Positions 15,036 through 60,160 of a stretch of 64,000 nt of DNA are shown piece after piece; the stretch's first letter is position 1, and every line of letters begins with the position of its first letter. The DNA is taken from assembly GCF_044704955.1 (NCBI RefSeq), contig NC_091980.1, positions 26,784,001-26,848,000 on the forward strand, written 5' to 3'. The translations under genes were made by a program, and so were the position numbers. The notes beneath the pieces were generated by a model that did not search any database, was not told the DNA's origin, and saw only the letters and a program-made list of their open reading frames with translations. The DNA comes from Pristiophorus japonicus. Its lineage: Eukaryota.

Positions 15036-15189
15036 CTGTAAAAACAGATAAATGACGTGTAATATAGATTTCCATAAACTTCCTGAATTATTGCTTTCAG
15101 AATTTTCTTTTCACTACAGAACAGTCAGACAAATGCTAACCGGCCGTGCTTAGTGCTGACTATCTAAATTTCCCAGATAGTGTCGACTT

Positions 15190-15490: not shown

Positions 15491-15712
15491 TTTTAGGAGG
15501 ATAGACAAAAAATAGTGTACAAATGCTAATGTTCACAATCAAAATTACTCACCCTTAGTTCTAATGCACAGAGGATTTTTACCCACATGGCTGTTTTTAA
15601 AGAGAGATTCATTCTGGGCTGTGTGATAGAACTGGAAAATCATGACATCATCCCGAGATTCTGTTAGGAATATTGGTGGAATTATTATTGTACCCTTTCT
15701 AGTACTACTTAC

Positions 15713-15910
15713 CTTTAATCCCAAATGCTTCATACTGTTTCAGGATTTGCTTACTGTGACCTTCTCTGTGAAAAGTTCCCAATTGCTTTGTAGTTTGTTG
15801 CCCTGAGTGTGGTCTCCATTCCCAGACAATGGAGCCATTTCCAGGATTGTTTGGCCCTTTCAATACAAAGTTACCTTCCTGATCAAAAAAATAAATATAA
15901 TTCCGGCCTC
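15713..15910 (-). pseudogene. Ig-superfamily gene, shortened V-like exon (198 nt, phase 1-1)
   Basis: ttttcttgcag acceptor and AG|gtaagt donor. Peptide GRNYIYFFDQEGNFVLKGPNNPGNGSIVWEWRPHSGQQTTKQLGTFHREGHSKQILKQYEAFGIK splices in frame to 15035. Confidence 0.7.
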
Positions 15911-33904: not shown

Positions 33905-35420
33905 AATCCTTGTGCATTTCACGACCTCAGGACAACCCAGACACTTTGAAGTTAAGTCCTTTTGTTTGAAGTGCAGTCACTGCTGTAATGTTGGGAAATG
34001 CAAAGCCAATTTTCACACAGCAAGGTCCCACAAATAACATTATGGTAATTAAAAGATAATCTATTTTTTAACGATGTGGGTTGAGCAATAACAGGTCCCA
34101 GAGAGAACTCCCATGCTCTTCTTTGCAATAGTGGCCATGGGATCTTTTAGATCCACCTTAAAGCGCCTCGGTTTAATGTCTCATCTGAAAGACAGCACCT
34201 TTGTGCTTCCCTCAGACAGTGCAGCGCTCTCTCAGAACTGCCCTACCGACAATGCAGTGCTCACTCAGTACTGCCCCTCCGACAGTGCAGCACTGCCTCG
34301 GTGCTGCTCCTCCGACAGTGTAGCACTCCCTCAGTACTGACCCTTGGACAGTGCAGCACTCCCTAGTACTGACCCTCTGACAGTGCAGCACTCCCTCAGT
34401 ACTGACCCTTGGACAGTGCAGCGCTCCCTCAGTACTGACCCTTGGACAGTGCAGCACTCCCTCAGTACTGACCCTCTGACAGTGCAGCACTCCCTCAATA
34501 CTGACCCTTGGACAGTGCAGCACTCCCTCAGTACTGACCCTCTGACAGTGCGGCATTCCCTCAGTACTGACCCTCTGACAGTGCAGCACTCCCTCAGTAC
34601 TGACCCTCCGACAGTGCAGCATTCCCTCAGTACTGACCCTTGGACAGTGTAGCACTCCCTCAGTACTGACCCTCCGACAGTGCTGCGCTCCCTCAGTACT
34701 GACCCTCCGACAGTGCAGCACTCCCTCAGTACTACCCTACCAACAGTGCAGCACTCCCTCACTACAGCCCCAACGACAATGCAGCACTGCCTCAGTACTG
34801 CCCCTCCAAGAGTGCAGCACTCTCTCCGTACTGCCCTACCGACAATGCAGCACTCCCTCAGTGCTGCTCCTCCGACAGTGTGGCACTCCCTCAGTGATGC
34901 TCCTCTGACAGTGCAGCACTCTCTCAGTACTGACCCTCCGACAGTGCAGCACTCTCTCAGTACTGCTCCTCCAACAGTGCAGCACTCCCTCAGTACTGAC
35001 CCTCCGACAGTGCAGCACTCCCTCAGTACTGACCCTCCGACAGTGCAGCATTCCCTCAGTGCTGACCCTCCGACAGTGCAGCACTCTCTCAGTACTGACC
35101 CTCTGACAGTGCAGCACTCCCTCAGTACTGACTCTCCGACAGTGCAGCATTCCCTCAGTGCTGACCCTCCGACAGTGCAGCACTCTCTCAGTACTGACCC
35201 TCTGATAGTGCAGCACTCCCTCAGTACTGACTCTCCGACAGTGCAGCATTCCCTCAGTGCTGACCCTCCGACAGTGCAGCACTCCCTCAGTGCTGGTGCC
35301 GAGGAGTGTCAAGCTAGATTATGAGCTCAGGTCCCTGGAGTGGTAACGCAAACCCTCAACCATCTGACTCGGAGGCAAGAGAGAGATAGAGAGAGAGTGC
35401 TAACCCCACTGAGCCATGGC
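33905..35420 (-). mobile_element. Deu-domain tRNA-derived SINE (SacSINE1-like) with an internal minisatellite expansion
   Basis: Deu core on - (gatgagacattaaaccgagg...aaaagatcccatggccac); tRNA-like head near 35330-35420. Confidence 0.7.
34213..35295. repeat. 33-bp minisatellite, roughly 33 copies (ccctccgacagtgcagcactccctcagtactga)
   Basis: Direct tandem units; they produce spurious 11-aa repeat ORFs (STDPPTVQHSL). Confidence 0.95.
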
Positions 35421-35670: not shown

Positions 35671-35716
35671 ATGGATGTACTCAGACTGATGCTGATCCTT
35701 CTCAGCTTGCTACCAG
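35671..35716 (+). CDS. Signal-peptide exon of the MAG/Siglec-like gene (exon 35653-35716)
   Basis: tttttacag acceptor, aagATGG Kozak context, MDVLRLMLILLSLLP, then CCAG|gtacaa phase-1 donor. Joins in frame to 45398 (G-ALSEEW). Confidence 0.8.
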
Positions 35717-35845
35717 GTACAATTTATTTTCTGAGCTGATTTTAAGAAATTGGATTCATTATTGCCCATGGATTTAGAGAGGAACCATTGAACAAAACAG
35801 AACAGATTTGGCCTTTAATTGTAGAGTGAGCAGGTATAGAATCAT

Positions 35846-35920
35846 AGAATGAGTGAGTGTGTGTGTGAGTGCATGTATGACTGTGTGTATATAAATGTAT
35901 GTGTATAAGAGTGTGTGTGA
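35846..35920. repeat. Degenerate (GT)n microsatellite
   Basis: gagtgagtgtgtgtgtgag...gtgtgtgtgag. Confidence 0.7.
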
Positions 35921-36224
35921 GCAACTGCTTAATGTGGGAAAACATAGTTGGTGTTAAATCATAAAGTGACCGGATATCTTACAGTGCAGAATGAGGCCAT
36001 TTGGCCCACTGTGCCTGTGCCACCCAGTGAGCAATAAGGGAACCTTCACTATAGAATTGCAATCATTCTTGCCAAGCTGTTAACTGAAAAAGTTGTAGTT
36101 AGGTTTACGCTAACTAATCAATGTAATAATAATAACTTTTATTTATATAGCAATATAATTGTAATGATATTTGCACAACAGGTATGTTATAATGCAGTGT
36201 TGCATTTATTTTTTGATTTATGTC

Positions 36225-36735
36225 ATGTTGAGGAAGGACATTCTTGTTATTGAGGGAATGCAGCGAAGGTTCACCAGACTGATTCCCGGGATGGCGGGAC
36301 TGACATATCAAGAAAGACTGGATCAACTGGGCTTGTATTCACTGGAGTTCAGAAGAATGAGAGGGGATCTCATAGAAACATTTAAAATTCTGACGGGTTT
36401 AGACAGGTTAGATGCAGGAAGAATGTTCCCAATGTTAGGGAAGTCCAGAACCAGGGGTCACAGTCTAAGGATAAGAGGTAAGCCATTTAGGACTGAGATG
36501 AGGAGAAACTTCTTCACCCAGAGAGTGGTGAATCTGTGGAATTCTCTACCACAGAAAGTTGTTGAGGCCATTCACTAAATATATTCAAAAAGGAGTTAGA
36601 TGTAGTCCTTACTACTAGGGGGATCAAGGGGTTTGGTGAGAAAGCAGGAATGAGGTACTGAAGTTGAATGGCAGTGCAGGCTCGAAGGGCCAAATGGCCT
36701 ACTCCTGCACCTATTTTATATATATGTTTCTATAT
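36225..36735 (+). mobile_element. CR1 3' fragment (same family as 54362-58785)
   Basis: LRKDILVIEGMQRRFTRLIPGMAGLTYQERLDQLGLYSLE... Confidence 0.85.
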
Positions 36736-36983
36736 GAAAGAGCTATCCAATTAATCCCACGATCCCAGCAGCCCGCACCCCCAACCCGCTTCACCATGCT
36801 CTTTCCCTATAGCCCTGCAAATGCACTTTCCTTTTTGAAAGTTATTATTGACTCTGCTTCCACTGTTCCATCAAGCAGTGCATTCCAGATTACAACAACT
36901 CGCTGTCTACAAAATGTTTCCTCATCACCCCGTTTGGTGCTTTTGCCAATAATCTTAAATCTGTGTCCTCTGGTTACTGCTGT

Positions 36984-38110
36984 GTCAACTGTGGCTCAGT
37001 TGGTGGCACTGTTGCCTCTGAATCAGAAGGTTGTGGGTTCCAGTCCGACCATTAGGACTGGATTTTCAACTTTTATGTTTTTGGGGCGATAATGGCAGCG
37101 GGGTGGGAAAGCTAGCGCTCAAGAATAGTTTGTGCCTCAGTAATTACGTTTGGGCAGCTAGGCTCTGTATCAGGGGGCTCAGCATTAAGGGAGGCATTGT
37201 ACCTGTCTTAGTCATTAGGATGGGAAACTCCCAAGCTAAAGAGCCAGGCCGGGAGCACTCTGAGAGATGCCTGGGGGTGGGAAAAATTACCTAAAAAAAA
37301 ATCACAAAAACATTCCCAAAACATTGACCACACCACCACAACACAAATCGCAAAAAAATTAAAAGAAAAACAATCACACTTACCTTAGGAGTCCATTACT
37401 CACCTCATTATTAATGGGATGGTTGGACTGCCTGATTTCCCAGACATTCACTGCGGGGCGCACTGCAGGGCAGACAGGTCAGGCAAGAGTCAAGCTCTTC
37501 CGGGTGGTGCTGCTCCATGCCGCCGCAAAAATAGACCGGAAGATCACTGCGCAGCGCTGGAGGCTGAACACCCAGCTAAAACACCTCACCGTCGCCATTG
37601 TCGCCACTCCGGGGCGAAAAACGGAGCAGAGAAGACCCGAAAATCCAGACCCAAGAGACTCGAGCACAAAAATCTAGGGTGACACGCCAGTGCAATAATG
37701 AGGGAGTACTGCACTGTTGGAGGCGTTGTCGTTCGAATGAGATGTTGAACTGAGGCCTTGTCTGCACTCACAGGTGGACATAAAAGATCCCATGGCACTA
37801 TATCGAAGAAGAGCAGGAGGAGAGAAGAGAGGTTCAGGATGGGAATTTCAGAGCCTAGGGCCCAGGCAGCTAACAGCATGGCTGCCAATGGTGTCCTGAC
37901 CAATATTTATCCCTCAATCAACATTACTAAAAATAACACAGATTGTCTAGTTGTTATCACATTGGTGTTTGAGGGAGCTTGCTGTGCGCAAATTGGCTGG
38001 CACATTTCGTACATTGCAACAGTGACTGCACTTCAAAAGTATTTCATTGGCTGTAAAAGGCTTTGGGATGTCCAGAGGTTGTGAAAGGCGCAATATAAAT
38101 GCAAGTCTTT
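36984..38110 (+). mobile_element. Deu-domain tRNA-derived SINE split by a MITE (37054-37652)
   Basis: A box gtggctcagttgg, B box gggttccagtcc, Deu core at ~37735-37930. MITE TIR aggactggattttc / gaaaatccagaccc. Confidence 0.8.
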
Positions 38111-38114
38111 CTTT

Positions 38115-38395
38115 TTTACCGACCCTCCTACCACTGGAAACAGTTTCTCCCTATTTACTCTATCAAAATCCCTCATAATTTGAACAATTGCATTAAATCT
38201 CCACTTAATCTTCTCTGCTCTAAGGAGAACAACCACAGCTTCTCTAAGTCTCTCCACAAAACTGAAAACCCTCATTCCTGGTACCATTCTGGTAAATCTC
38301 CTCTGCTCCCTCTCCAAGACCTTGACATCCTTCCTAAAGTGCAAAGCCCAGAATTGTACACATACTCCAGCTGAGGCCTAGCCAATGGTTCATGA
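38115..38395 (-). mobile_element. CR1 3' fragment
   Basis: HFRKDVKVLEREQRRFTRMVPGM on -. Confidence 0.75.
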
Positions 38396-38519
38396 AGAGA
38401 CTTTGGGGGCTGAAATTGGTTGTGGACATGGGTGTGTAAAACAGATGGAGGATTCGTTAATAATCACATAGAGCAGAGCATCAGAGAGCTCTCATTCAAC
38501 AACATACTACCAAGAAGAA

Positions 38520-41500
38520 GAAGTGTGAACTATTAGATGAAATAAACATAGTGAGAGAGGAGGTGTTAAGGGGTTTAGCAGCTTTGAAAGTGGATAAATC
38601 CCCAGGCCCAGATGAAATGTATCCCAGGCTGTTAAGGGAAGTAAAAGAGGAAATAGCAGAGGCTTTGAAGATCATTTTCCAATCCTCTCTGGCTTCAGGT
38701 GTGGTGCCAGAGTACTGGAGGACTGCTAATGTGGTACCTTTGTTTAAGAAGGGAGAAAGGGATGGACCAAGTAATTACATGCCAGTCAGCCTAACCTCAG
38801 CAGTGGGAAAATTATTGGAAAAATTCCTGAAGGACAGGATAAATCTTCACTTAGAAAGACACGGATTAATCAAGGGCAGTCAGCATGGATTTATTAAGGA
38901 AAGGTCGTGTCTGACTAACTTGATTGAATTTTTCGAGGAGGTAACCAGGAGAGTCAATCAGGGCAGTGCATATGATGTAGTGTATATGGATTTTAGCAAA
39001 GCTTTTGATAAGGTCCCACATGGCCACAAAAGTAAAAGGCCATGAAATCCAGGGCAAAGTGGCAAGTTGGATCCAAAATAGGCTCAGAGGCAGGAAGCAA
39101 AAAGTTGATGGGTGTTTTTGCGACTGGAAGGATGTTTCCAGTGGGGTTCCGCAGGACTCAGTACTAGGTCCCTTGCTTTTTGTGATATACATCAATGAGC
39201 TAGACTTGAATATAGGGAGTATGATTCAGAAGTTTGCAGATGATACTAAAATTGGCTGTGTGGTTGATAATGAAGAAGAAAGCTGCAGACTGCAGGAAGA
39301 TATCAATCAACTGGTCAGGTGGGCAGAACAGTGGCAAATGGAATAAGTGTGAGGTAATGCATTTTGGGAGGGCTAACAAGGAAAGGGAATACACATTAAA
39401 TGGTGGATACTGAGAAGTGTAGAGGAACAAAGGACTTAGAGTGCATGTCCACAGATTCCTGAAAGTAGCAGGCCAGGAAGATAAGGTGATTAAGGTGTCA
39501 TGTATGTACATGCTGTTTGTAGCTACCAGGTGGTGCCATTGCTGGAGGCCACTGAGCAGCACGCACATGGTGCTGCTCTGGTATAAAAGGCCAGCCATTT
39601 TGTGAGTCAGACATTTTGGGCCAAAATAAAGTAGAAGCAAGGTTGTCTCTTGCTTAGTTAAACAGTACTCAGTTTGAACTTTTATTGCACAACATAGCAT
39701 TTGGCGATGAGAATACAAGAACATTTGTTTGCAAAATGAGCACGATTGGATTTTTAGAGCGATCCGTGGAGAGAGTAGATTGGGCAGACTTTGTGAGCCG
39801 TTTGAACCAGTACTTCATGGCCAACAAAATGGAGGGGGTCGACAATGCAGATCGGTGCCGGGCCGTGTTCCTCATTATGTGCGGTTCAAAGATCTATGGT
39901 CTGATAAAGAATCTACTCATGCCTAGTGATCCAATAGAGAAAACGTACGAGGAGCTGTGTACATTGGTATGAGAGCACCTGAAGCCAGAGGACGGCATCA
40001 TCATCTCGAGATACAGGTTTTATACACACATTCGATCGGAGGGCCAGAGCGCAGCAGAATTTGTTGCCGATCTGAGACGTCTAGCGGGACGGTGTTGGCC
40101 GATATGCTGCGGGACTTCTTTGTTATCGGTATCAACCACGAGGTGATCCTGCGTAAATGTCTGGTGGTGGAGGAGTTGGATGTAAAAAGGGCTATCCAGA
40201 TCGCTCAATCATGTATGACGACGACGGACAGGAGTCGAAAGCAAATAGCAGTGAAGAACCGAACCTCAGCAAGTAATGTAAATGCGAGTGATTCAGCGTT
40301 CGGCAGAGCGGCATATGGCAGGGCCTATCCGGCTACGATCGTGAAACCTGTGGCTGCCCAAAGTACGCCAGCGGAACTGTATCCGAGTTCTCCGTGTTGC
40401 CGTTGTGGGGAAAATCATCGGCCCCAGCAGTGCCGATTTAAGCAATACAGTTGCAAAGGCTGTCTGAGAATAGGGCATCTCCAGCGCAAGTGTCCGCAGA
40501 TGAGCAAGCGAGCTGCGAAGCACCATGTGGAGGATGAGAGCCAGACTAGCGCGGATCCAGATACGCAATCCGAGATGCCAGAGGAGGAAGTGTATGGACT
40601 GTACTCCTTCATAACCAAGAGTAAACCAATTTTGATTGACGGGAAGTTTAATGGGATACCGGTATCGATGGAACTGGACACAGAGGCGAGTCAATCGATC
40701 ATGAATGAGAGGGCATTTAATAAGCTGTGGGATACTAAGACTGTGAGGCCCAGGCTGAGCCCTGTTAATGTCAAGCTGCGCACATACACCAAAGAACTGA
40801 TAAAGGTGATTGGCAGTGCACAAATTAATGTGTCGTATAACAGTGCGGTTCACGAGTTCGAGGCAATGGCCCAACGTTGCTCAGCAGGAGCTGGTTGGAG
40901 AAAATCAGATGCGACTGGAATGACATAAAGGCGTTGTCGTCAGAGGAAGATACATGTGCCCAAGTATTGAGCAAGTTCCCCTCACTGTTCGAACCCGGTA
41001 TCAGCAACTTCATGGAAGCCAAGTTGTAGATCCAGGTCCATCTCCCTCATCATATGCTCGGGCAGTGCCGTATATGATGAGGAAGATGGTCGAAATCGAA
41101 CTGGACAGACTCCAGCGTGGAGGGATCATATCACCGGTCGAATTTAATGAATGGGCCAGCCCCATTGTTCCTGTGCTGAAAAGTGATGGCACAGTCAGAA
41201 TCTGTGGCGACTGCAAGGCTATGATCAACAGGGTTTGGAAACAGGATCAGTACCTGTCACCGAAGGCTGATGACTGGTTTGCGACGCTAGCCGGTGGGAT
41301 GTCATTCACAAAACTGGACTTGACGTCGGCCTATATGACGCAGGAGTTGGTCAAGATGTCGAAGAGACTTACGTGCATTAACACGACAAAGGACTATTTA
41401 TTTACTACAGGTGCCCGTTTGGAATTCGCTCAGCTGCAGCAATATTCCAGGGGAATATGGAAAGTCTACTGAAGTCTGTTCCCAGAACTGTCGTGTTCCA

Positions 41501-44500
41501 AAATGACATCCTGATCACAGGTGGTGACTCCAAGGAACATCTGAACAACCTGGAAGAGGTTCTACTGCATTTGAACAGAGTGGGACTCAGACTTAAACGT
41601 CCGAAGTGTGTCTTCATGGCACCGGAGGTCGAATTCCTCGGGAGGAAAATCGCCGCTGATGGTATCAGACTACTGACGTGAAAACCAAAGCCATCAAGAA
41701 TGCACCCAAGCCGCAGAACGTGACGGAGCTGCGTTCATTCCTGGGTCTACTCAACTTCTTTGGTAAATTCCTACCTAAATTGAGCACCTTACTTGAACAT
41801 GCTATTGAGAAAAGGCATGGAGGGCTTTGCAAGACAGAGCCTTCGAGAAAGCCACCAATCTGCTTTGCTCGAACAAGCTGCTGGTACATTATGACCCATG
41901 TCAACATTTAGTTTTGGCCTGTGATGCATTACCTTATGGAATTGGTTGCGTGTTACAACAAGCCAATGAGTCGGGGAAACTTCAACCTGTCGCATATGCA
42001 TCCAAAAGTTTGTCTAAAGCAGAAAGAGCTGACAGTATGGTAGAAAAAAAAGCTTTAGCATGTGTGTATGGTATTAAAATGATGCATCAATACCTGTTCG
42101 GTCTGAGGTTTGAATTAGAGACCGATCACAAGTCGCTCATTTCGTTGTTTTCCGAGAGCAAAGGTATTAATACCAATGCTTCATCCCGCATCCAAAGGTC
42201 GGCGCTGACATTATCTGCCTATGATTATGTCATTTGCCACAGACCTGGTACAGAGAATTGTGCCGATGCTTTGAGCCGGTTGCCGTTGCTGACACTGGAG
42301 GTGGAAACGCCACAACCGGCATATTTAATGTTAATCATGGATGCGTTTGAGAGTGAAGGTACCCCTGTCATGGCTCAACAAGTTAATACCTGGACCAACC
42401 AGGACCCAATATTATCGGTGGTAAAGGGTTGCATCCTCAAAGGGGGTTGGTCTGCCATACCTAGGAAATGTGTGAGGAGGCCAAACCGTACATTCGTCTC
42501 AAGGACAAGCTGTCTATTCAAGCAGATTGCATATTGTAGGGCAATCGAGTTGTAATGCCTAAGAAAGGGAGAGAGAAGTTTGTGCGTGGGTTACACAGCA
42601 CACATTCTGATATAGTGATGATGAAGGCCATCACCAGGTCCCATGTATGGTGGCCAGAAATTGATTCTGAGCTAGAAGTATGCGTGCATCAGTGCAACAC
42701 CTGCATGCAGCTCAGCAAAGCACCAACGGAATCGTCGCTGAGCCTGTGGTCATGACCATCCAAACCTTGGTCCAGGATCCATGTAGATTTTTCAGGTCCC
42801 TTCCTGGGCAAAATGTTTTTAGTGGTGGTGGATGCCTTTTCGAAGTGGATAGACTGCATAATCATGTCATCCAGTACATCCACGGCAACCACAGAGAATC
42901 TCAATGTCATGTTCGTGACATGGTCTGCCTGACACAGTGGTGAGCGACAATGGAACACCAGTCAGGAGTTTCAGGAGTTTGTAAAACTTAATGGCATAAA
43001 ACATGTAAGGTCAGCACCATTCAAGCCTGCGTCCAACGGGCAAGCAGAATGTGCAGTACAAGTTATCAAGCTAAGCATGAGGAGAGAATCCAAGGATCAC
43101 TGCAGACCCACTTGTCTTGCATACTGCTGAGTTACAGGACAAGATCCCACACACTCAGAGGTCTCACCTGCTGAATTTATGATGAAAAGAGGTCTTAGAC
43201 CATGTTATCTCTTGTACAGCGGGATTTAAGTAATCATGTTGAATACAGAAGACAGAGTCAACAAGGGTACCACGATCGCACAACTGTGTCACGCGAAATT
43301 TCTGTGAATGATCCTGTATATGCATTGAATTATGGTCAGTGTCCCAAAGGGATTGCTGGTACACGCATGGCCAAGGAGGGAAACAGAGTATTTGTTATTA
43401 AGCTCAAGAATGGGCAAACTTGCAGGAAACACATGGATCAGACAAAGCTGAGGCACACAGACGAGCCAGAGCAGTCGGACGAAGAAACCGTCGACGACCA
43501 ACCAACCTACCAGCAGCCTTCAGTGGACTCAAGGGTCATCAGTGAACCCGGAATTCCCATCATGGACTTGTTCAATAAAAATAGACTTACAATTCCTGAC
43601 ATGACCACTGCCACCCCCAACAAGTCAGTCATCCAGCCACCAGCCACAACAGACTCCGCACATTCACCCAAGGCCGGAATCGAACTGAGACGGTCAACCC
43701 GGGAGCGTAAAGCACCGGACCATCTCAACCTGTGAAAAACTGTGATAAGATCTCAGAGGAGGGTATTGTCATGTATGTACATGCTGTTTGTAGCCACCAG
43801 ATGGTGCCATTGCTGGAGGCCACTGATAAAGCAGAAGCAAGGTTGTACCTTGCTTATTTAAACAGTACTCAGTTTGAACCTTTATTGCATACATAACAGA
43901 AGGCATACGGAATGCTTGCCTTTATTTGCCGAGGCATAGAATGTAAGAGCAGGGGGCTTATGCTTGAACTGTATAAAACACTGGTTAGCCACAGCTTGAG
44001 TACTGCATGCAGTTCTGGTCACCACATTACAGGAATTACGTTATTGCACTGGAGCGAGTACAAAGGAGATTTACGAGGATGTTGCTGGGAATGGAGAATC
44101 TAAGCTATGAGAACAGATTAGATAGGCTGGATCTGTTTTCATTGGAACAGAGGAGGCTGAGAGGAGACCTCATTGAGGTGTATAAAAATATGAGGGGCCT
44201 AGATATAGTGGATAGTAAGGGCCTATTTCCCTTAGCAGAAGGGGCAACAAGCAGGGGCCATAAATTTAAAGTAATTGGTAGAAGGTTTAGAGGGGATTTG
44301 AGGGGAAATTTCTTCACCCAGAGGGTGGTGGGTGTCTGGTACTCATTGTCTGAAGTGATAGAGGCAGAACCCCTCACCACATTTAAAAATTACTTGGATG
44401 TGCACCTGAAGTGCCGTAACCTGCAGGGTTACGGATCTAGAGCTGGAAAGTGGGATTAGGCTGGATAGCCTCTTGTTGGCCGGCACGGACACGATGGGCC

Positions 44501-44542
44501 GAAATAGCCTCCTTCTGTGCTGTAAATTTCTATGATTCTATG
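38520..44542 (+). mobile_element. CR1 RT-to-3' end fragment split by a Gypsy insertion
   Basis: RT ORFs 38551-39346 (KSPGPD, GVPQDSVLGP, KFADDTK). Resumes at 43899 (KAYGMLAFI...) and ends in a ctatgattctatga tail. Confidence 0.9.
39496..43898 (+). mobile_element. Full-length decayed Ty3/Gypsy (Mag-like) element; LTRs 39496-39699 and 43767-43898
   Basis: TGTCA...CA LTRs, PBS TGGCGATGAG (39702), PPT agaggaggg, TSD taagg/gaagg. Gag with two Cys/His knuckles, then PR, RT, RNase H and IN with many frameshifts. Confidence 0.95.
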
Positions 44543-45335
44543 AACAACAACAACTTGCATTTATACAGCGCTTTCAACACAGTTGCATACCCCAAGGCAC
44601 TTTACAGGAGCGTTATCAAATTAAATTTGACACGGAGCTGCATAAAGAAATATTAGGGCGGATGACCAAATGTTTGGTAATAGAGGTAGGTATTAAGAAT
44701 CGTCTTAGAGGAGGAAACAGAGACAGAGACGTGGAGAGGTTTAGGGAGGAATTCCAGAACTTAGGGCCGAGGCAACTGAAGGCATGACCACCAATGGTGG
44801 AGCGATTAAAATCAAGAGGACAGATTTGGAGGAGTGCAGATATCTTGGAAGATTGTAGAGCTAGAAGGGTTAGAGAGATAGGGAGGGCCGAGGTCATGGA
44901 GGGATTTGAAAACATGAGAATGAGAATGTTACAATTGGAGCATTGCTGGACCGAGAGACAATGTAGGTTAGCGAGCAATGGGGTGGGGTGGTGGGGGGGC
45001 GGGAGTGGTGCTGATGGGTGAATGGGACTTGGTGCGAGTTAGGATATGTTACAGCAGAGTTTTGGATGAGCTCCAGTTCATGGAGGATGGAGCATGTGAG
45101 GCCAGCCAGAAGAGCATTGGAATAGTAAAGTCTGGAGGTAACAAATGCACAGATGAGAGTTTCAGCAGATGAGCTGAGGCAGAGGTGGAGACGGGCGATT
45201 TACGGAGGTGGAAGTAAACGGTCTTGGTGCTGACACGGATACCGTGATTGGAAGCAATCCCGGGGTCAAATACGGCACCAAGGATGCGAAGGCTCTGGTT
45301 CAGCCTCAGGTAGTTGCCAGGGAGAGTGATAACCG
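44543..45335 (-). mobile_element. L2-type LINE 3' fragment
   Basis: (AAC)n tail plus 'ttgcatttatacagcgc'. On -: RSTIGGHAFSCLGPKFWNS and LRILGAVFDP. Confidence 0.75.
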
Positions 45336-45397
45336 GATCAGACATTCTTTGCTGTACACTGTTTCATTCACTTCTTTGCCCCCTCATTCCTTTTCAG

Positions 45398-45754
45398 GGG
45401 CACTGTCGGAGGAATGGTCTATCCGAGCTCTGCCCAGGAAGGCAGTGAGCCGATCTTGTGTGGTGATACCCTGTACTTTCGACTTTCCTTCACACCCTTA
45501 CATAGCCCTGCACGGAGCCTGGTTTAAATACTGGTATAAATGGAAATACACAGTCTACTACAGCAAAGATCCCAAATATGCGATGTCCACATTCATGGGG
45601 CGAGCCAAAATAATTGGAGACCTGGAGCAGAAGAATTGCTCCTTGAGGATCAATAATCTCAGACCCGAAGACAGTGACATGTATTACTTCTATGTGGATT
45701 TGGAGGGCTTCAAGGATCATACTTTCACAGACCCTGTCCAGCTACAGGTTGTCC
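45398..45754 (+). CDS. V-set Ig exon of a MAG/Siglec-like protein (357 nt, phase 1-1)
   Basis: Polypyrimidine/ttttcag acceptor and C|gtaagt donor. Siglec signature W...SCVVIPCTFDFP...HGAW...FMGRAKIIGDLEQKNCSLRI...DSDMYYFYVDLEG...TF, closely paralleling MAG D1 (CVSIPCRFDFP...LGDLGLRNCTL...YYFRGDLGG). Confidence 0.92.
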
Positions 45755-45792: not shown

Positions 45793-46790
45793 CAGCCATG
45801 GCTCAGTGGGTTTAACACTCCCTCTCTCTTGTCCCTGAGTCAGAAGATCATGGGATCAAATACCTGCTCCAGGAGATTTGAGCACATAATCCAGGCTAAC
45901 ACTTTTTGTAGTACTGAGGGATCACTGTTCTGTCAAAGGGTCAGTACTGAGGGAATGCTGCACTGTCAGAGGGACAGTACTGAGGGAGTGCTGCACTGCC
46001 AGAGGGACAGTACTGAGGGATCACTGTTCTGTCAGAGGGTCAGTACTGAGGGAATGCTGCACTGTCAGAGGGGCAGTACTGAGGGAATGCTGCACTGTCA
46101 GAGGGGCAGTACTGAGGGAATGCTGCACTGTTTGAAGGGGCAGTACTGAGGGAGTGCTGCTCTGTCAGAGGGACAGTACTGAGGGAATGCTGCACTGTCA
46201 GAGGGACAGTACTGAGGGAATGCTGCAGTGTTCGGAGGGGCAGTACTGAAGGAGTGCTGCACTGATTGGAGGGGCAGTACTGAGGGAGTGCTACACTGTC
46301 AGAGGGGCAGTACTGAGGGAATGCTACACTATTTGGAGGGGCAGTACTGAGGAAGTGCTGCACTGTTTGGAGGGGTAGTAATGAGGGAATGCTGCACTGT
46401 CAAAGAGGCAGTACTGAGGGAAAACTGCACTGTCAGAGCAGCAGTACTGACAGAGTGCTGCACTGTCGGAGTTTCAGATGGGACTTTAAACCGAGACTCC
46501 ATCTGCCCTCTCAGGTGGACATAAAAAAATCCCCTGCCGCTATTCGAAGAAGAGCAGGGGAGTTCTCCCTGGTGTCCTGGGGCTAACATTTATCCCTTGA
46601 TCAACATCACGACAAAATAATATGATCTGGTCATTTCTAACCTTGCTGATTGTGGGAGGTTGCTGTGCGCAAATTGGCTGACACGTTTCCTACATTACAG
46701 TGACTACAATTCAAAAGTACTTTATTGGCTGTAAAGCGCTTTGGGATGTCCTGCGGTGGTGAAAGGCGCTATAGAAATGCAAGATTTTTT
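45793..46790 (+). mobile_element. Deu-domain SINE with an internal minisatellite (45909-46470)
   Basis: Head tggctcagtgg...gggatcaaatacc; ~17 units of agtactgagggaatgctgcactgtcagagggc; Deu core at ~46477-46610; L2-like tail. Confidence 0.85.
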
Positions 46791-49607: not shown

Positions 49608-52600
49608 CATCATCAACATCATCATAGGAGGTCCCTCGGAATCGAGGAAGACTTGCTTCCACTCCTGAAGTTATTTCTGTTCAGCATCCCAGCATCCCTT
49701 GGGAGCACTGTACATAAGCCGGCCCCTAAGGCCTGTTCCTCATTCTGGAGTGCCTTATTAAAGACTGAGGTCACTGTTACTTTAACCTCCCTGGGTGCAG
49801 TCTCATCTGTGTTAGGAACACAATAACTGCGACGAGTATACAGATCCAACGCAAAGAGGCAGCAAACTGTGGGCATCCTGGAGAAGTTCTCGGAGGGTGA
49901 GGACTGGGAAGCCTATGTCGAACAGCTAGACCAGTACTTTGTAGCCAATGAGCTGGACGGAGAAGGAAGTGCTGCAAAAAGGAGAACGGTCTTCCTCGCA
50001 GTCTGCAGGGCACCGATCTACAGCCTCATGAAGAATCTTCTGGCTTCGGTGAAACCCACAGATAAGTCATATGAGGAGCTGTGTACACTGTTTTTGGAAA
50101 ATCTTAACCCGAGGGAGAGCGTGCTGATGGCGAGGTATCGGTTCTACACGTGCCAGCGATCTGAAGGTCAGGAAGTGGCGAGCTACGTCGCCGAGCTAAG
50201 GTGACTTGCAGGACAATGTGAGTTTGATGGCTACCTAGAGCAAATGCTCAGAGATTTTTTTGTACTGGGCATTGGCCACGAGTCTATCCTACGAAAACTT
50301 TTGACTGTAGAGACACCGACCCTCAGTAAGGCCATTGCGATAGCACAGCGTTTATGTCCACCAGTGATAATACCAAACAAATCTCACAGCACACAAGTGC
50401 TAGCAATGTTCATAAATTAACTGGAACTGTGTTGTGAGCAGAAATGTACAGGGCAGAAACCACGAGTCTGCAACTGCCAGCAGGTCTCAGGAGACCCAGA
50501 TGACTCAGAGTCAGCAACAAAGGATGAATGCAAGACAATTCACACCTTGTTGGCATTGTGGAGACTTCCATTCAGCCTATTCGTGTCGCTTCAAAGGGTA
50601 TGTTTGCAAGAGCTGTGAAACAATGGGGCACCTCCAATGAGCTTGCAAACGAGCTGCAAGCTCTGCAAAACCTGCTAACCACCACGTGGCAGAGGAAGAT
50701 CGGTCCATGGTGGATCAAAGCAATTTCGAGCCTCAGAGAGAGGAGGCAGATGCTGAAGTACACGGGGTGCACACATTTTCGATGAAATGTCCACCTATAA
50801 TGCTAAATGTAAAATTGAATGGCTTACCCGTAGCCATGGAATTGGACACTGGCGCTAGCCAATCCATCATGAGTAAAAAGATGTTTGAGAGGCTGTGGTG
50901 CAACAAGGCATTCAGACCAGCCCGGAGCCCCATCCACACGAAACTGAGAACATACACCAAAGAGCTTATCACTGTCCTGGGCAGCGCCATGATCAAGGTC
51001 ACCTACGAGGGCACGGTGCACGAACTGCCACTCTGGATTGTCCCGGGCGATGGCACCACACTGCTTGGAAAGAGCTGGCTGGGCAAAATCCGCTGGAACT
51101 GGGATGACATCCGAGCACTATCACATATTGATGAGGCCTCATGTACCCAGGTTCTTAACAAATTTCCTTCCCTTTTTGAGCCAGGCATTGGAAACTTTTC
51201 CGGAGCGAAGGTACAGATCCACTTGGTCCCAGAGGCACGACCTATTCACCACAAGGCACGAGCGGTACCTCACATGATGAGGGAGAGAGTGGAAATCGAG
51301 CTGGAGAAGCTGCAAAGCGAGGGCATCATATCCCCAGTGGAATTCAGCGAGTGGGCCAGCCTGATTGTTCCAGCAGATTTGCGGCGATTATAAAGTAACT
51401 ATTAATTGTTTCTCGCAACAGGACCAATACCCGCTTCCTCAGGCAGACGACCTAATTACGATGCTGGCAGGAGGCAAGACATTCACCAAGCTCGACCTGA
51501 CTTCGGCCTACATGACGCAGGAGCTGGAGGAGTCTTTGAAGGGCCTCACCTGCATCAACACGCACACGGGACTGTTCATCTACAACTGATGCCCATTCGG
51601 AATTTGGTCGGCTACAGCGATCTTCCAGAGAAACATGGAGAGCCTACTGAAGTCGGTACCATGCACGATGGTCTTTCAGGACGACATATTGGTCATGGGT
51701 CAGGACACCGTCGAGCACCTACAAAACCTGGAGGAGGTCCTCCAGCGACTGGATCGCGTAGGGCTGCGGCTGAAGAGGTCAAAATGCATCTTCATGGCAA
51801 CAGAAGTGGAGTTTTTGGGGAGAAAGATCGCGGCAGACGGCATTCGGCTCACAGACGCCAAGACAGAGGCTATCAGGAACGCGCGCAGGCCACAAAACGT
51901 CATGGAGCTGCAGTCGTTCCTGGGACTCCTCAACTATTTTGGTAACTTCCTACTGGGGTTAAGCACCCTCTTAGAGCCCCTGCATGTGTTATTGCATAAA
52001 GGTGAGAACTGGGTATGGGGAAAAAAACAAGCAATTGCTTTTGAGAAAGCCAGAAACATTTTATGCTCCAACAAGCTGCTTGTATTGTATAACCCGTGTA
52101 AAAGACTTGTGCTAGCATGTGACGCATCATCGTACGGAGTCGAGTGTGTATTACAACAAGCTAACGTTGCAGGAAAGTTGCAACCTGTCACCTATGTTTC
52201 CAGGAGCTTGTCTAAGGCCGAGAGGGCCGACAGCATGATTGAGAAAGAGGCATTAGCGTGTGTGTTCGGGGTCAAGAAAATGCATCAGTACCTGTTTGGC
52301 CTCAAATTTGAGCTGGAAACTGATCACAAGCCCCTCATATCCCTGTTCGCTGAAAACAAGGGGGTAAATACTAATGCCTCAGCCCGCATACAAAGGTGGG
52401 CACTCGCGCTATCAGCGTATAACTATACCATCTGCCACAGGCCAGGCACCGAGAACTGTGCGGATGCTCTCGGTCGGCTACCATTGCCCACCACGGGGGT
52501 GGACATGGCGCAGCCTGCAAACTTGTTGATGGTGGCGCAGCCCGCAGTCTTGTTGATGGTCATGGAAGCGTTTGAAAATGATAAATCACCTGTCACGGCC

Positions 52601-54267
52601 CGCCAGATTAGGACTTGGACCAGTGAAGATCCTCTGCTGTCCCTAGTAAAAAACTGTGTTCTGCACGGGAGCTGGGCCAGATCCCCATTGAAATGCAAGA
52701 GCTAATCAAGCCGTTACAGTGACGAAAGGATGAGCTGTGCATTCAGGCAGACTGCCTGGTAACCATGTCGTGCTACCAAAAAAAGGGCAGGGAGACGTTC
52801 ATCTCGGATCTCCACAGCACACACCCGGGAATAGTAATGATGAAAGCGATAGCCAGATCCCAAATGTGGTGGCCCGGTATCGACTCTGACTTAGAGTCCT
52901 GTGTACGGCAATGCAGCGTGTGTGCTCAGTTGAGCAATGCGCCCAGAGAGGCGCCACTAAGTTTGTGGTCCTGGCCCTCCAGACCATGGTCGAGGATCCA
53001 TGTCGACTATGCAGGCCCGTTTTTCGGTAAAATGTTCCTGGTGGTGGTGGATGCTTTTTCAAAATGGATTGAATGTGAAATAATGTCGGGAAGCACCGCC
53101 ACTGCCACCATTGAAAGCCTAAGGGCCTTGTTTGCCACCCATGGCCTGCCTGACATACTGGTCAGTGACAACGGGCCATGTTTCACCAGTGCCGAATTTA
53201 AAGAATTCATGACCCGCAATGGGATCAAACATGTCACCTCGGCCCCGTTTAAACCAGCCTCCAACAGGCAGGCAGAGCGGGCAGTACAAACCATCAAACA
53301 GAGCCTCAAATGAGTCACAGAAAGCTCACTCCAAACTCGCCTATCGTTAGTACTGTTCAGCTACCGCACGAGACCCCACTCGCTCACAGTGGTGCCCCCG
53401 GCTGAGCTACTCATAAAAAGGACACTTAAAACCAGACTCTCACAGGTTCCCCCCAACCTGCATGATCAGGTAAAGAGCAGGCGGCAGCATCAAAATATAA
53501 ATGATGGTCGCGCCACTGTGTCACGGGAAATTGATCTGAATGACCTTGTATATGTGCTAAACTACGGACATGGTCCCAAGTGGATCGCGGGCACGGTGAT
53601 AGCTAAAGAAGGGAGTAGGGTGTTTGTAGTCAAACTGGACAATGGACAAATTTGCAGAAAGCACCTGGACCAAACGAGGCTGCGGTTCACAGACTGCCCT
53701 GAACAACCCACAGCAGACACCACCTTTTTTGAGCCCACAACACACACCCAAAGGATCAACGATACCATGCCAGACCAGGAAATTGAACCCATTATGCCCA
53801 ACAGCCCAACAAGGCCAGGCTCACCTAGCAGCCCTGCAAGGCCAACAACACGCCAGCCCAGCGAGGGCACAGCCAACACACCAGAACAGACATTTGTACC
53901 GAGGCTGTCCACCAGGGAAAGAAAGGCTCCCGACCGCCCCACCTTGTAAATAGTTTTCACTTTGACTTTGTGCATGATGTTGTGCATCTGTAAAGCATGC
54001 ACTCCCATGTTCCGCCACCAGGGAGCTCATCCCCTGAAGTCCCAAGGGATCCCAGCATCCCTTGGGAGCACTGTATATAAGCCGGCCCCTAAGGCCTATT
54101 CCTCACTCTGGAGTGTCTTATTAAAGACTGAGGTCACTTACTTTAACCTACCTGTGTGCAGTCTCATCTGTGTTAGGAACACGATAAGTTCTTTGGTGGC
54201 TGTACAGTCCAGTACGAGAGCCACAGACTCTGTCACAGATGAGACAGACAGTCGTTGAGGGAAGTGG
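49608..54267 (-). mobile_element. Short RTE 3' end (49608-49677 + 54187-54267) split by a Gypsy; 10-bp TSD
   Basis: TSD tgaggatagt at 49598-49607 and 54268-54277; (CAT)n tail. Confidence 0.8.
49678..54186 (+). mobile_element. Full-length decayed Ty3/Gypsy (Mag-like) element; LTRs 49678-49825 (deleted) and 53978-54186
   Basis: Shared LTR sequence atcccagcatcccttgggagcactg...ggaacac, PBS tgcgacgag, TSD atttc/agttc. Gag, ELDTGASQS, FQDDILV, ACDASSYG, IN with HHCC, HVDYAGP, VSDNGP and QAERAV. Confidence 0.95.
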
Positions 54268-54650: not shown

Positions 54651-57600
54651 AGCCGGTGCAGCTACAGGCAGAAGGCAAAAAAGAAGTAGAAAGAAACAGA
54701 AAGGTGATGTCACAGCCAAGGGGGTAAGTGATTGGCTGGTGATTGGTGAGTAGGTTTTCTTTATTCTCTTCTATAACAGTGAGTAAACTTTAGCATTGTT
54801 GTTGCTTAACTAAGGGTTAAGTCATGGCAGGACAGCTCGGTCACGTGTTATGCTCCTCCTGTACCATGTGGGAAGTCAGGGACGACTCCAGTGTTCCTGA
54901 CAACTGCATGTGCGGGACGAGTATCCACCTCCAGCTCCTGACGGACCGCGTTGCGGAGTTGGAGCTGAGGGTGGATTCACTCTGGAGCATCCCATGATGC
55001 TGAGAATGACGTGAGTAGCACGTGTAGCGAGTTGGTCATACCGCAGGCAAAGGGTCCACAGCCAAATAGGGAATGGAAGACCAGCAGGAAGAGCAGTGCA
55101 ATGAAGGTAGTGCAGGGGTCCCCTGTGGTCATCCCCCTGCAAAACAGATACACTGCTTTGAGTACTGTTGAGGGGGATGACTCATCAGGCACCGTGGCTG
55201 CCTCTGTTGCACAGGAGGGCAGGAAAAAGAGTGGGAGAGCGATAGTTATAGGGGATTCAATTGTAAGGGGAATAGATAGGCATTTCTGCGGCCGCAACCG
55301 AGACTCCAGAATGGTATGTTGCCTCCCTGGTGCAAGGGTCAAGGATGTCTCGGAGCGGGTGCAGGACATTCTAAAAAGGGAGGGAGAACAGCCAGTTGTC
55401 GTGGTGCACATTGGTACCAACGACATAGGTAAAAAAAAGGGATGAGGTCCTACGAAACAAATTTAAGGAGCTAGGAGCTAAATTAAAAAGTAGGACCTCA
55501 AAAGTAGTAATCTCGGGATTGCTACCAGCGCCACGTGCGAGTCAGAGTAGGAATCGCAGGATAGCGCAGATGAATACGTGGCTTGAGCAGTGGTGCAGCA
55601 GGGAGGGATTCAAATTCCTGGGGCATTGGAACCAGTTCTGGGGGAGGTGGGACGAGTACAAACCGGACGGTCTGCACCTGGGCAGGGCCGGAACTAATGT
55701 CCTAGGGGGAGTGTTTGCTAGTGCTGTTGGGTAGGAGTTAAACTAATATGGCAGGGGGATGGGAACCAATGCAGGGAGACAGAGGGAAACAAAAAGGAGA
55801 CAAAAGCAAAAGACAGAAAGGAGATGAGGAAAAGTGGAGGGCAGAGAAACCCAAGGCAAAGAACAAAAAGGGCCACTGTACAGCAAAATTCTAAAAGGAC
55901 AAAGGGTGTTAAAAAAACAAGCCTGAAGGCTTTGTGTCTTAATGCAAGGAGTATCCGTAATAAGGTGGATCAATTAACTGTGCAAATAGATGTTAACAAA
56001 TATGATGTGATTGGGATCACAGAGACGTAGCTCCAGGATGATCAGGGCTGGGAACTCAACATCCAGGGGTATTCAACATTCAGGAAGGATAGAATAAAAG
56101 GAAAAGGAGGTGGGGTAGCATTGCTGGTTAAGGAGAAGATTAATGCAATAGTTAGGAAGGACATTAGCTTGGATGATGTGGAATCTATATGGGTAGAGCT
56201 GCAGAACACCAAAGGGCAAAAACCGTTAGTGGGAGTTGTGTACAGACCTCCAAATAGTAGTAGTGATGCTGGGGAGGGCATCAAACAGGAAATTAGGGGT
56301 GCATGCAATAAGGGTGCAGCAGTTATAATGGATGACTTTAATATGCACATAGATTGGGCTAACCAAACTGGAAGCAATACGGTGAAGTAGGATTTCCTGG
56401 AGTGCATAAGGGATGGTTTTCTAGACCAATATGTCGAGGAACCAACTCGCGGGGAGGCCATCTTAGACTGGGTGTCGTGTAATGAGAGAGGATTAATTAG
56501 CAATCTCGTTGTGCGAGGCCCCTTGGGGAAGAGTGACCATAATATGGTGGAATTCTGCATTAGGATGGAGAATGATACAGTTAATTCAGAGACCATTGTC
56601 CAGAAGTTAAAGAAGGGTAACTTTGAAGGTATGAGGCGTGAATTGGCTAGGATAGATTGGCGAATGATACTTAAGGGGTTGACTGTGGATGGGCAATGGC
56701 AGACATTTAGAGACCGCATGGATGAACTACAACAATTGTACATTCCTGTCTGGCGTAAAAATAAAAAAGGGAAGGTGGCTCAACCGTGGCTATCAAGGGA
56801 AATCAGGGATAGTATTAAAGCCAAGGAAGTGGCATACAAATTGGCCAGAAATAGCAGCAAACACGGGGACTGGGAGAAATTTAGAACTCAGCAGAGGAGG
56901 ACAAATGGTTTGATTAGGGCAGGGAAAATGGAGTACGAGAAGAAGCTTGCAGGGAACATTAAGACGGATTGCAAAAGTTTCTATAGATATGTAAAGAGGA
57001 AAAGGTTGGTAAAGATAAACATAGGTCCCCTGCAGTCAGAATCAGGGGAAGTCATAACGGGGAACAAAGAAATGGCAGACCAATTGAACAAGTACTTTGG
57101 TTCAGTATTCACTAAGGAGGACACAAACAACCTTCCGGATATAAAAGGGGTCAGAGGGTCTAGTAAGGAGGAGGAACTGAGGGAAATCCTTATTAGTCGG
57201 GAAATTGTGTTGGGGAAATTGATGGGATTGAAGGCCGATAAAACCCCAGGGCCTGATGGACTGCATCCCAGAGTACTTAAGGAGGTGGCCTTGGAAATAG
57301 CGGATGCATTGACAGTCATTTTCCAACATTCCATTGACTCTGGATCAGTTCCTATCGAGTGGAGGGTAGCCAATGTAACCCCACTTTTTAAAAAAGGAGG
57401 GAGAGAGAAAACAGGGAATTATAGACCGGTCAGCCTGACATCGGTAGTGGGTAAAATGATGGAATCAATTATTAACGATTTCATAGCAGCGCATTTGGAA
57501 AGAGGTGACATGATAGGTCCAAGTCAGCATGGATTTGTGAAAGGGAAATCATGCTTGACAAATCTTCTGGAATTTTTTGAGGATGTTTCCAGTAGAGTGG

Positions 57601-58785
57601 ACAAGGAAGAACCAGTTGATGTGGTATATTTGGACTTTCAGAAGGCTTTCGACAAGGTCCCACACAAGAGATTAATGTGCAAAGTTAAAGCACATGGGAT
57701 TGGGAGTAGTGTGCTGACATGGATTGAGAACTGGTTGTCAGACAGGAAGCAAAGAGTAGGAGTAAATGGGTACTTTTCAGAATGGCAGGCAGTGACTAGT
57801 GGGGTACCGCAAGGTTCTGTGCTGGGGCCCCAGCTGTTTACACTGTACATTAATGAATTAAACGAGGGGATTAAATGTAGTATCTCTAAATTTGCGGATG
57901 ACACTAAGTTGGGTGGCAGTGTGAGCTGCGAGGAGGATGCTATGAGGCTGCAGAGCGACTTGGATAGGTTAGGTGAGGTTATCCACTTTGGTGGTAAAAA
58001 CAGAGAGACAGACTATTATCTGAATGGTGAAAGATTAGGAAAAGGAGAGATGCAACGAGACCTGGGTGTCATGGTACATCAGTCATTGAAGTTTGGCATG
58101 CAGGTACAGCAGGCGGTTAAGAAAGCAAATGGCATGTTGGCCTTCATAGCGAGGGGATTTGAGTACAGGGGCAGGGAGGTGTTGCTACAGTTGTACAGGG
58201 CCTTGGTGAGGCCACACCTGGAGTATTGTGCACAGTTTTGGTCTCCTAACCTGAGGAAGGACATTCTTGCTATTGAGGGAGCGCAGCGAAGGTTCACCAG
58301 ACTGATTCCCGGGATAGCAGGACTGACCTATCAAGAAAGACTGGATCAACTGGGCTTGTATTCACTGGAGTTCAGAAGAATGAGAGGGGACCTCATAGAA
58401 ACATTTAAAATTCTGATGGGTTTAGACAGGTTAGATGCAGGAAGAATGTTCCCAATGTTGGGGAAGTCCAGAACCAGGGGTCACAGTCTAAGAATAAGGG
58501 GTAAGCCATTTAGGACCGAGATGAGGAGAAACTTCTTCACCCAGAGAGTGGTGAACCTGTGGAATTCTCTACCACAGAAAGTTGTTGAGGCCAATTCACT
58601 AACTATATTCAAAAAGGAGTTAGATGAAGTCCTTACTACTAGGGGGATCAAGAGTATGGTGAGAAAGCAGGAATGGGGTACTGAAGTTGCATGTTCAGCC
58701 ATGAACTCATTGAATGGCGGTGCAGGCTCGAAGGGCCGAATGGCCTACTCCTGCACCTATTTTCTATGTTTCTATGTTTCTATGA
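54362..58785 (+). mobile_element. Near full-length CR1 LINE: tandem 5' monomers, ORF1 (Zn-finger + SGNH esterase, ~54823-55735) and ORF2 (EN-RT, ~55740-58700), with stops
   Basis: ORF1 IGDSIVRG...CLPGA...HIGTND...DGLHL. ORF2 EN (LNARSI, ITET, VYRPP) and the 790-aa ORF 56472-58844 with KFADDTK. Tail (ctatgttt)n. Confidence 0.95.
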
Positions 58786-58810
58786 TGCACTTTGTGAGGA
58801 CTAATAATGT

Positions 58811-60160
58811 AAATCATAGAATCATAAAACCATATAAATTATGATACAGAAGGAGAGCATTTGGCCGCTCGTGTCCGTGTCAGTCGAAAAAGAGCTACCC
58901 AACCTAATCCCACTTTCCATCACTAGGTCCATAGCTCTGTAGATCACGGCTCTTTAAATGCATATCCAAGTACTTTTAAAATATTATGAGTATTTCTGCC
59001 TCTACCACCCTTTCAGGCAGTGAGCTCCAGACTCCCACCATCCTCTGAGTGAAAATATTTGTCCTCTGCTCCCCGCTAATCCTTCTACCAAATACTTTAA
59101 ATCTATGCCACCTGGTTATTGACCCCTCTGCTCAGAGAAATAAGTCCTTTGCATCCACTCTATCTCGGATCCTCATAATTTTATACACCTCAATTAAATC
59201 TCCCCTCAACCTCCTCTGTTCCAAAGAAAACAACCCCAGCCTATCCAATCATTCTTCATAGCTAAAATGTTTCAGTCCAGGCAACGTCCTCGTAAATCTC
59301 CTCTGCACCCTCTCTAGTGCAATCACATCTTTCCTGTAATGTGGTGACCAGAACTCTATGCAGTACTCTAGCGGTGGCCTAACTAGTGTTGTATACAATT
59401 CTAGCATAACTCCCTTGCTTTATATTCTAGGCCACAGCTAATAAAGGAAGACATTCAGTCTGCCTTTTTAGCTACCTTATCGATCTGTCCTGCTGCATTT
59501 AAGTCTCAGTGGACATACACTCCAAGGTCCCTCTGACCCTCCGCACCTCTCAGTATCCTTCCATTTATTCTGTATTCCCTTACCTTGTTGCCCCTCCCCA
59601 AATACATTATCTCACACTTTTACGGATTGAATTCCATTTTCTACTTTTCTGCTCAACTGACCAGTTCATCGAAATCTTCCTGCAGTGTAAAGCTTTCCTC
59701 CTCGCTCTCAGCCACACAGCCAATTTTTGTATCATCTGCAAATTTCTTTATCGTGCATCTAACATTTAACTTTAAATCATTAATATATACTACGAAAAGC
59801 AAGGGACCGAGTACTGAGCCCTGTGGAACTCCGCTGGAAACAACCTTCCAGTCTCAAAAATACCCATCAACCATTACCCTTTGCTTCCTGTCATTGAGCC
59901 AATTTTGGATTCAATTTGCCACTCTCCCTTGGATGCCATGGGCTTTTACTTTTTTGATCAGCCTGTTATGTGGGACCTTGTAAAAAGCCTTGCTAAAATC
60001 CATGCAGACTACATCAAATGCATTGCTCTCATTGACCCTCCTTATTACCTCCTCGAAAAATTCAATCAAATTAATCAGACACAACCTTCACTTAACAAAT
60101 CCGTGCTGACTGCCCTTGATTAATCCGTGTCTTTCTAAGTGAAGATTTATTCTGCCCTCT
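58811..60160 (-). mobile_element. CR1 RT-to-3' fragment
   Basis: Reverse complement of CR1 RT motifs (GVPQGSVLGP, FADDTK); tail at 58811-58835. Confidence 0.85.

Follow-up and report, generated by a model that had tools for sequence, protein, structure and literature searches.

An intact Siglec-like V-set exon of Pristiophorus japonicus with tyrosine at the essential arginine position belongs to a conserved family of sharks and rays

Does an exon that has the appearance of a sialic-acid-binding Siglec domain, but carries a tyrosine at the position of the essential arginine, encode a retained receptor, and what might such a receptor recognize? The exon in question is located at positions 45398-45754 (plus strand) of the window, namely, the whole stretch of 64,000 nucleotides of Pristiophorus japonicus DNA that was analyzed. 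It is flanked by an acceptor AG (45396-45397) behind a pyrimidine tract and by a donor GT at 45755, both of its ends are in phase 1, and its reading frame is open for 118 full codons from position 45400 (P0001). The Pfam families V-set and Ig_CD22 both exceeded their curated cut-offs, so that the V-set assignment is not a chance match. The first-pass annotation had considered the exon intact and its leader exon clean, and both statements were confirmed. The leader (signal peptide) exon was located at 35671-35716 (plus strand) and consists of an ATG start, 15 codons plus one base, and a GT donor at 35717; in a six-frame comparison with the leaders of the family described below, it was the top match with a score of 50, against 35 for the runner-up. 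The putative intron 1 (35717-45397, plus strand, ~9.7 kb) has GT..AG ends, agrees in phase 1, and contains LINE-like and LTR-retroelement-like fragments, as judged from repeat ORFs and high repeat depth. The joint between the leader and the V exon has no entry among the contig joints listed for this stretch, which is swamped by repeats.

A tblastn analysis with 353 proteins found no downstream Siglec exon between the V exon and the end of the window (>18 kb), and matches with E <0.01 were obtained only at the exon 45398-45754. Some 20 kb upstream, another gene with Ig domains is likely represented by two exons on the minus strand (14743-15060 and ~15708-15910). The first of them matched Pfam Ig_3 with an E value of 8e-4, which is below the cut-off, and its atlas matches were generic Ig clusters; no similarity of these two exons to Siglecs was found by tblastn with the same 353 proteins. 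Tandem arrays with units of ~30 bases are present near the leader (34092-35324) and past the V exon (45890-46460). The window furthermore contains a LINE-like frame of 817 codons (56391-58844) and broken LTR-retrotransposon-like elements at 10100-12900, 39600-43750, 49800-53950, and 60500-64000, in which reading frames resembling protease, reverse transcriptase, and integrase, broken by stop codons and frameshifts, were recognized by eye.

Two of the features that define Siglecs were found. The first is an N-terminal V-set domain with Siglec fold behind a signal peptide. The second is the three-cysteine pattern, which the first-pass annotation had already claimed: the cysteine codons at 45457, 45472, and 45637 (C20, C25, and C80) match the three cysteines of domain 1 of MAG and sialoadhesin (Siglec-1) in the alignments, and Cys20 and Cys25 (45457-45474, plus strand) are both invariant in the family. 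The bonds of this pattern are inferred, with Cys25 and Cys80 (45637-45639) predicted to form the intra-sheet bond and Cys20 predicted to link to domain 2. The extra cysteine of a C-P-D/E motif was found in domain 2 of relatives and in P0018; in the gene of the exon 45398-45754, the corresponding region lies outside the window. An AlphaFold2 model of the V domain based on 69 sequences reached a pLDDT of 90.6 and superseded a first model based on 16 close sequences (pLDDT 66.8). The comparison of this model with 48,161 chains returned sialoadhesin as the top structural match (Z 19.4, rmsd 1.3 Å, 113 aligned residues), and MAG matched with a Z score of 18.6. The look-alikes in the atlas were generic CD22/CD33/V-set clusters only. 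In a prediction made without an alignment, the homodimer score was 0.17, as compared to a mark of 0.32, which speaks neither for nor against a homodimer.

The third feature, the essential arginine on the F strand, is absent. The HMMER alignment placed Tyr98 (TAT, 45691-45693, plus strand) without gaps on R118 of MAG (YYF-R-GDL) and on the corresponding arginine of sialoadhesin (YNF-R-FEI), in agreement with the first-pass annotation. A misalignment of the F strand was ruled out by the sequence and structure alignments. Tyrosine occupied this column in all 26 matches of the first homologue search and in all 26 distinct V sequences present in the 31 proteins of the family, which are kin and not independent observations. 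The species named for this Tyr-type family amount to 16 and comprise sharks as well as sawfish, skates, and rays. The tyrosine is thus fixed across orthologues and paralogues, a point that the first-pass annotation had proposed to check, and since it is found family-wide, a private mutation or a sequencing error was ruled out. The change from arginine to tyrosine occurred once, in the ancestor of the family. It is true that this change requires at least two substitutions, as the annotation had argued, but the argument is weak because a single ancestral change is involved and, by the genetic code, both steps would be CpG transitions if the starting codon was CGT or CGC. The conservation throughout the family is much stronger evidence for a retained receptor than one clean exon.

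We also considered whether a nearby arginine substitutes for the missing one. The C, C', F, and G strands carry no arginine, and the pocket strands of the family contain no conserved arginine, which, on the basis of strand assignment and distances aside, argues against a substitute. The sole invariant arginine of the family is R68 on the D strand, which we take to be the structural V-set arginine. The annotation had furthermore contrasted DHTF in the G strand with QYTF in MAG; this reading is right for the exon 45398-45754, but the family as a whole has not lost the aromatic, as position 107 of the 26 distinct sequences is His in 20 cases and Tyr in the other 6. Of the aromatics in the Siglec pocket, the one on the A strand is kept: Trp6 (45415-45417, plus strand) falls in the same alignment column as the N-terminal Trp in MAG-type rows and is Trp in 24/24 family sequences that cover the position. 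Classical Arg-dependent binding of sialic acid has very probably been lost in the family.

The family is well delimited. When 1.84 billion representatives were searched with a profile, scores of 211-241 bits were obtained for full family domains and of 160 and 98 bits for two partial family domains, whereas the next domain reached 82 bits. Among the 190 domains with at least 35 bits, the Arg column contained Arg in 117, Tyr in 32 (28 of them from the family), Trp in 18, and Lys in 6 cases; the remaining 17 had another residue or no coverage. Trees were built with the Arg column removed, and the Tyr-type family formed one clade both with the V domain alone (100/99; 70 rows hand-picked from 175) and with domains 1 and 2 (100/100; 58 rows). 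In the latter tree, the 8 shark rows formed a group of their own (99/99) to the exclusion of the 5 batoid rows; this suggests that one gene predates the shark/ray split and that local duplication came later. At least three Tyr-type paralogues are present in one species (P0003, P0004, and P0018). No chimaera member was seen among the named matches, the wide profile search providing names for 30 proteins only. In four species, Arg-type Siglec scaffolds are equal in length to the scaffolds of Tyr-type genes, so that the Tyr-type family likely lies next to canonical Siglecs instead of taking their place. The database labels MAG-like, CD22-like, and sialoadhesin-like conceal this family, and we found no description of it in the open-access literature; subscription papers on Siglec evolution were outside this scope, and an earlier mention is possible.

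The predicted protein models provide information on the remainder of the receptor. The UniRef model P0018 of P. japonicus is 100% identical to the translated exon over residues 62-118. It begins at an internal Met without a leader and adds three further unbroken Ig domains, but past the fourth Ig domain it continues with V domains of the Arg type and looks like a fused gene model. Because of this fusion and the end of the window, the transmembrane and tail exons of the P. japonicus copy were not seen. In relatives, the predicted models contain C2-type domains, an uncharged transmembrane segment, and tyrosine motifs. A hydrophobic transmembrane-like segment is present in 27 of the 31 family proteins, in none of the 27 with a charged residue inside, and the tails of these 27 proteins, isoforms and paralogues counted, contain an ITIM pattern in 16 and a Tyr-Glu/Ala-Asn motif in 17 cases. 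Such a tail, as predicted, would mediate inhibitory signaling. The C-termini of 29 models were of the family's own type in 18, resembled the Arg-type family in 10, and were of neither type in 1 case; the predicted tails may therefore be mis-joined. The models that combine a Tyr-type V domain with an Arg-family-like C-terminus are P0002, P0003, P0006, P0007, P0009, P0010, P0018, P0022, P0023, and P0025; they come from several species and may reflect exon shuffling, read-through within a tandem cluster, or an error of annotation. Typical family proteins have 430-650 residues and few Ig domains. The lamniform models P0008, P0011, P0012, P0014, and P0015 have 970-1155 residues; in P0008, the third Ig domain is present in about eight nearly identical copies, and stalk length is highly variable in the family.

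Two contigs of relatives, X1 and X2, which come from two studies, are ~92% alike, and represent RNA by guess, end their alignment exactly at 45754: X1 (record 8) aligns over 45525-45754, and X2 (record 24) aligns over 45404-45754 and continues for 373 further letters. As a genomic contig should enter the GT, the stop at the donor is a weak hint of splicing in the relatives, and it is silent on the P. japonicus copy. This copy might be a tandem duplicate in the course of decay while the family as such is functional, considering the three or more paralogues in one species, the truncated and fused P0018, and the >18 kb that follow the V exon without a next exon. We regard such decay as highly improbable, since the leader, the V exon, and the splice sites are intact, P0018 adds three unbroken Ig domains, and P0001 sits on a short branch (0.078) of the V tree.

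The first-pass annotation had described the domain as MAG/Siglec-like; a specific likeness to MAG is not supported. Domain 1 of the family is 33% identical to MAG and 31-32% identical to other Siglec groups, whereas MAGs share 53-75% among themselves. The sugar contacts of MAG are R118, Y65, N125, Y127, and T128 (PMC7226832). In the family, R118 is replaced by Tyr, N125 is variable, Y127 corresponds to His in 20 and Tyr in 6 sequences, T128 is kept in 24/26, and the position aligned with Y65 is mostly Tyr. Neither the identity level nor the contact set expected of a MAG orthologue was thus found. Support for a grouping with MAG differed between analyses, with 0.946 in FastTree, 88/55 in IQ-TREE with the V domain alone, and no resolved sister in the tree of domains 1 and 2; an AU test did not reject the grouping (p 0.375). 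In domain-1 identity, the family is about as far from MAG as from the other Siglec groups.

We also inspected the distribution of MAG itself. The MAG profile gave 126 matches at E <=1e-60 among 5,532 candidates. No MAG of a cartilaginous fish was present among the 120 matches listed, in which the sole cartilaginous entry, P0347, is not MAG; the search is insensitive, as teleost MAGs are also few among the matches listed. MAGs of coelacanth, bichir, paddlefish, and bowfin are present among them. Sharks may be without true MAG and have the Tyr-type family as its replacement, but this profile search does not establish it. As for the conservation of domains, shark and ray members of the family share 66% identity in domain 1 and 56% in domain 2 (40 pairs). 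The corresponding values for rat MAG versus five others are 53-75% and 39-52%, and those for Arg-type shark Siglecs versus one ray protein are 41-47% and 55-60% (4 pairs, possibly paralogues). On these identities, domain 1 is kept better than domain 2 in the Tyr-type family, as in MAG and in reverse of the Arg-type shark Siglecs tested.

The replacement of the arginine is accompanied by changes on the same face of the domain. The model shows a tight C-C' hairpin made up of strands 36-45 and 48-54; residues 41-54 (45520-45561, plus strand), rich in Trp, Tyr, and Lys, are the hallmark of the family and its proposed ligand surface on the basis of conservation and the model strands. W41, Y44, W45, W48, K49, Y50, and Y54 are present in 25/25 family sequences. 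The segment contains 8 to 10 aromatic residues in the 22 family domains, versus 1 to 7 (mean 3.3) in 153 other domains; three Trp residues were found in 22/22 family domains, whereas at least three were found in just 3/153 others. F42, Y44, Y96, Y98, and F/Y109 are nearly fixed in the family, Thr108 is present in 24/26 sequences, and position 46, which aligns with Y65 of MAG in a shorter loop, is mostly Tyr. The F-G loop with His107 at the position of MAG Y127 (45694-45720, plus strand) is acidic: columns 98-107 have a net charge between -2 and -4 (mean -2.8) in 26/26 family sequences, whereas 92 Arg-type segments average +0.24, of which the Arg itself contributes +1. Taken together, the aligned sequences indicate that the pocket face is rebuilt and conserved in the family, the geometry of the pocket being derived from strand alternation only.

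The reading that we prefer, with a probability of roughly two in five, is that of a Siglec-like inhibitory receptor that would not bind sialic acid in the classical manner but would read membrane lipid or glycolipid surfaces. With Tyr98 in place of Arg, the classical salt bridge to sialic acid would not form, and the conserved Trp/Tyr/Lys hairpin would contact a membrane lipid or glycolipid surface. A ligand that is chemically invariant would explain the conservation of the hairpin. The combination of Trp, Tyr, and Lys at the hairpin tip is the usual composition of bilayer-interface anchors. Siglec-6 is described to bind bilayers via an exposed Lys-Trp pair, with no need for a ganglioside (PMC12953582). 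This pair is located a few residues past the Arg, outside the C-C' loop, so that the analogy is functional and not positional. The argument for a lipid ligand is one of composition and analogy, and an aromatic face is equally compatible with a protein or a neutral glycan.

V domains use the GFCC' face for protein contacts, and the near-fixed F42, Y44, Y96, Y98, and F/Y109 are placed on this face by strand alternation. The aromatic GFCC' face could hence bind a conserved protein, such as a self ligand, a partner chain, or another copy, and the receptor would then be a protein-sensing checkpoint on a Siglec frame. Such a role has a parallel in Siglec-5, the binding of which to neutrophils without Arg119 is ascribed to a protein ligand (PMC13324755). 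However, no candidate partner was found, and the near-invariance of the surface Trp, Tyr, and Lys residues would fit a lipid or glycan that does not drift somewhat better than a co-evolving protein. We consider a protein ligand possible and nearly as likely as a lipid surface. It is unlikely that the domain is a lectin for a neutral or cationic glycan of host or microbial origin, which would stack on Tyr98, Trp6, His/Tyr107, and the hairpin aromatics and form hydrogen bonds with the acidic F-G loop. Trp6, Thr108 (24/26), the aromatic at 107, and mostly Tyr at 46, aligned with MAG Y65, are kept and correspond to sugar contacts of MAG (PMC7226832), but the three extra Trp/Tyr residues at the hairpin tip would surpass the needs of a Siglec sugar site, and no precedent for a neutral glycan was found in the literature cited.

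The first-pass annotation had deduced a functional Siglec-fold receptor with a non-sialic ligand. A Siglec fold retained without the canonical arginine in a cartilaginous fish is supported by our data, but the non-sialic ligand does not follow from the loss of the arginine, as the case of Siglec-6 illustrates. According to PMC12953582, the loss of Arg only weakens binding by Siglec-6, and MAG and Siglec-11 are reported to work without it. By this precedent, the loss of Arg leaves room for ganglioside binding, and sialylated glycolipids (gangliosides) could still be bound in the membrane in a non-canonical mode, as is partly the case for Siglec-6. K49, invariant in the family, would be consistent with this mode. 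We nevertheless judge it very unlikely, as the F-G loop, net acidic in 26/26 sequences, would repel a carboxylate; moreover, the same paper indicates that free sialosides need the Arg and that the binding of polysialylated gangliosides by MAG appears to depend on it (PMC12953582). Recognition of a lipid or glycolipid surface without classical sialic-acid binding remains the reading that we favor.

A second Arg-less clade, mostly with Trp at the Arg column, was found in bony vertebrates (97/85 in the V tree). Its named members are from gar, tarpon, knifefish, caecilian, tailed frog, and soft-shell turtle, and the proteins include P0031, P0091, P0100, P0055, P0141, P0034, P0044, and their kin. 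The Arg column contains Trp in 18/27 and otherwise Tyr, Gly, Ser, or Ile. In teleost models, V domains of this clade adjoin Arg-type V domains within one protein. A Tyr three residues past the C-strand Trp is present in 22/22 domains of the Tyr-type family and 18/27 of the Trp clade, as compared to 0/126 others; the Trp group was defined after the FastTree tree had been viewed, and the counts stem from two clades and should not be read as independent events. An AU test with 13 Tyr-type and 5 Trp-clade rows (P0165 left out) did not reject a union of both (p 0.432), whereas the free trees separate them. It is doubtful, although suggested by this shared Tyr, that both groups form an Arg-less Siglec branch spanning all jawed vertebrates, with membrane lipids and not sialic acid as what it would sense.

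The Siglecs without Arg known so far are, for the most part, accidents of recent date in primates. A lineage without Arg that has been kept and duplicated since before the shark/ray split, its surface rebuilt and conserved, speaks for an additional, ancient class of ligands of the Siglec fold, and the ligand of the Tyr-type family bears on what early Siglecs recognized. The predicted design is that of an inhibitory Siglec, but the essential Arg is absent, and we therefore file the family as Siglec-like. Among primates, PMC7379906 and PMC6288428 describe human Siglec-XII with R122C, great-ape Siglec-5/14 with Arg to His, and one orangutan SIGLEC14 with Arg to Tyr. These share with the Tyr-type family a Siglec fold and a signaling tail without the essential Arg, and they provide a precedent for the change from Arg to Tyr. 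However, the primate mutants are recent, often polymorphic or being lost, and otherwise unchanged in the pocket, whereas the Tyr-type family is fixed across sharks and rays, is duplicated, and has its whole face rebuilt and conserved.

Sialoadhesin is the best structural match for domain 1, but the Tyr-type proteins differ from it by the missing F-strand Arg and by their few Ig domains. Siglec-6 is the model for how the domain may work, as its exposed Trp and Lys engage the bilayer; it differs in that it keeps the Arg and that its Lys-Trp pair is located just past this Arg and not in the C-C' hairpin (PMC12953582). The Arg-type multi-V Siglecs of sharks and rays, annotated as 'Siglec 8/12/13-like', share the Siglec cysteines and, in four species, scaffolds of equal length, but they form a separate clade (100/99), have Arg or Lys in most domains, often contain several V domains, and have a faster-evolving domain 1. 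MAG, finally, is the best sequence match among solved structures (E 7e-17) and shares with the Tyr-type family the three cysteines, the C-P-D/E motif of domain 2, a domain 1 that is more conserved than domain 2, and a related membrane-proximal domain (E about 1e-11). In contrast to MAG, the family has Tyr for R118, a variable N125, and mostly His for Y127, its C-C' loop is shorter and Trp-rich, its tail is unlike that of MAG, and its identity to MAG is no higher than to other Siglec groups.
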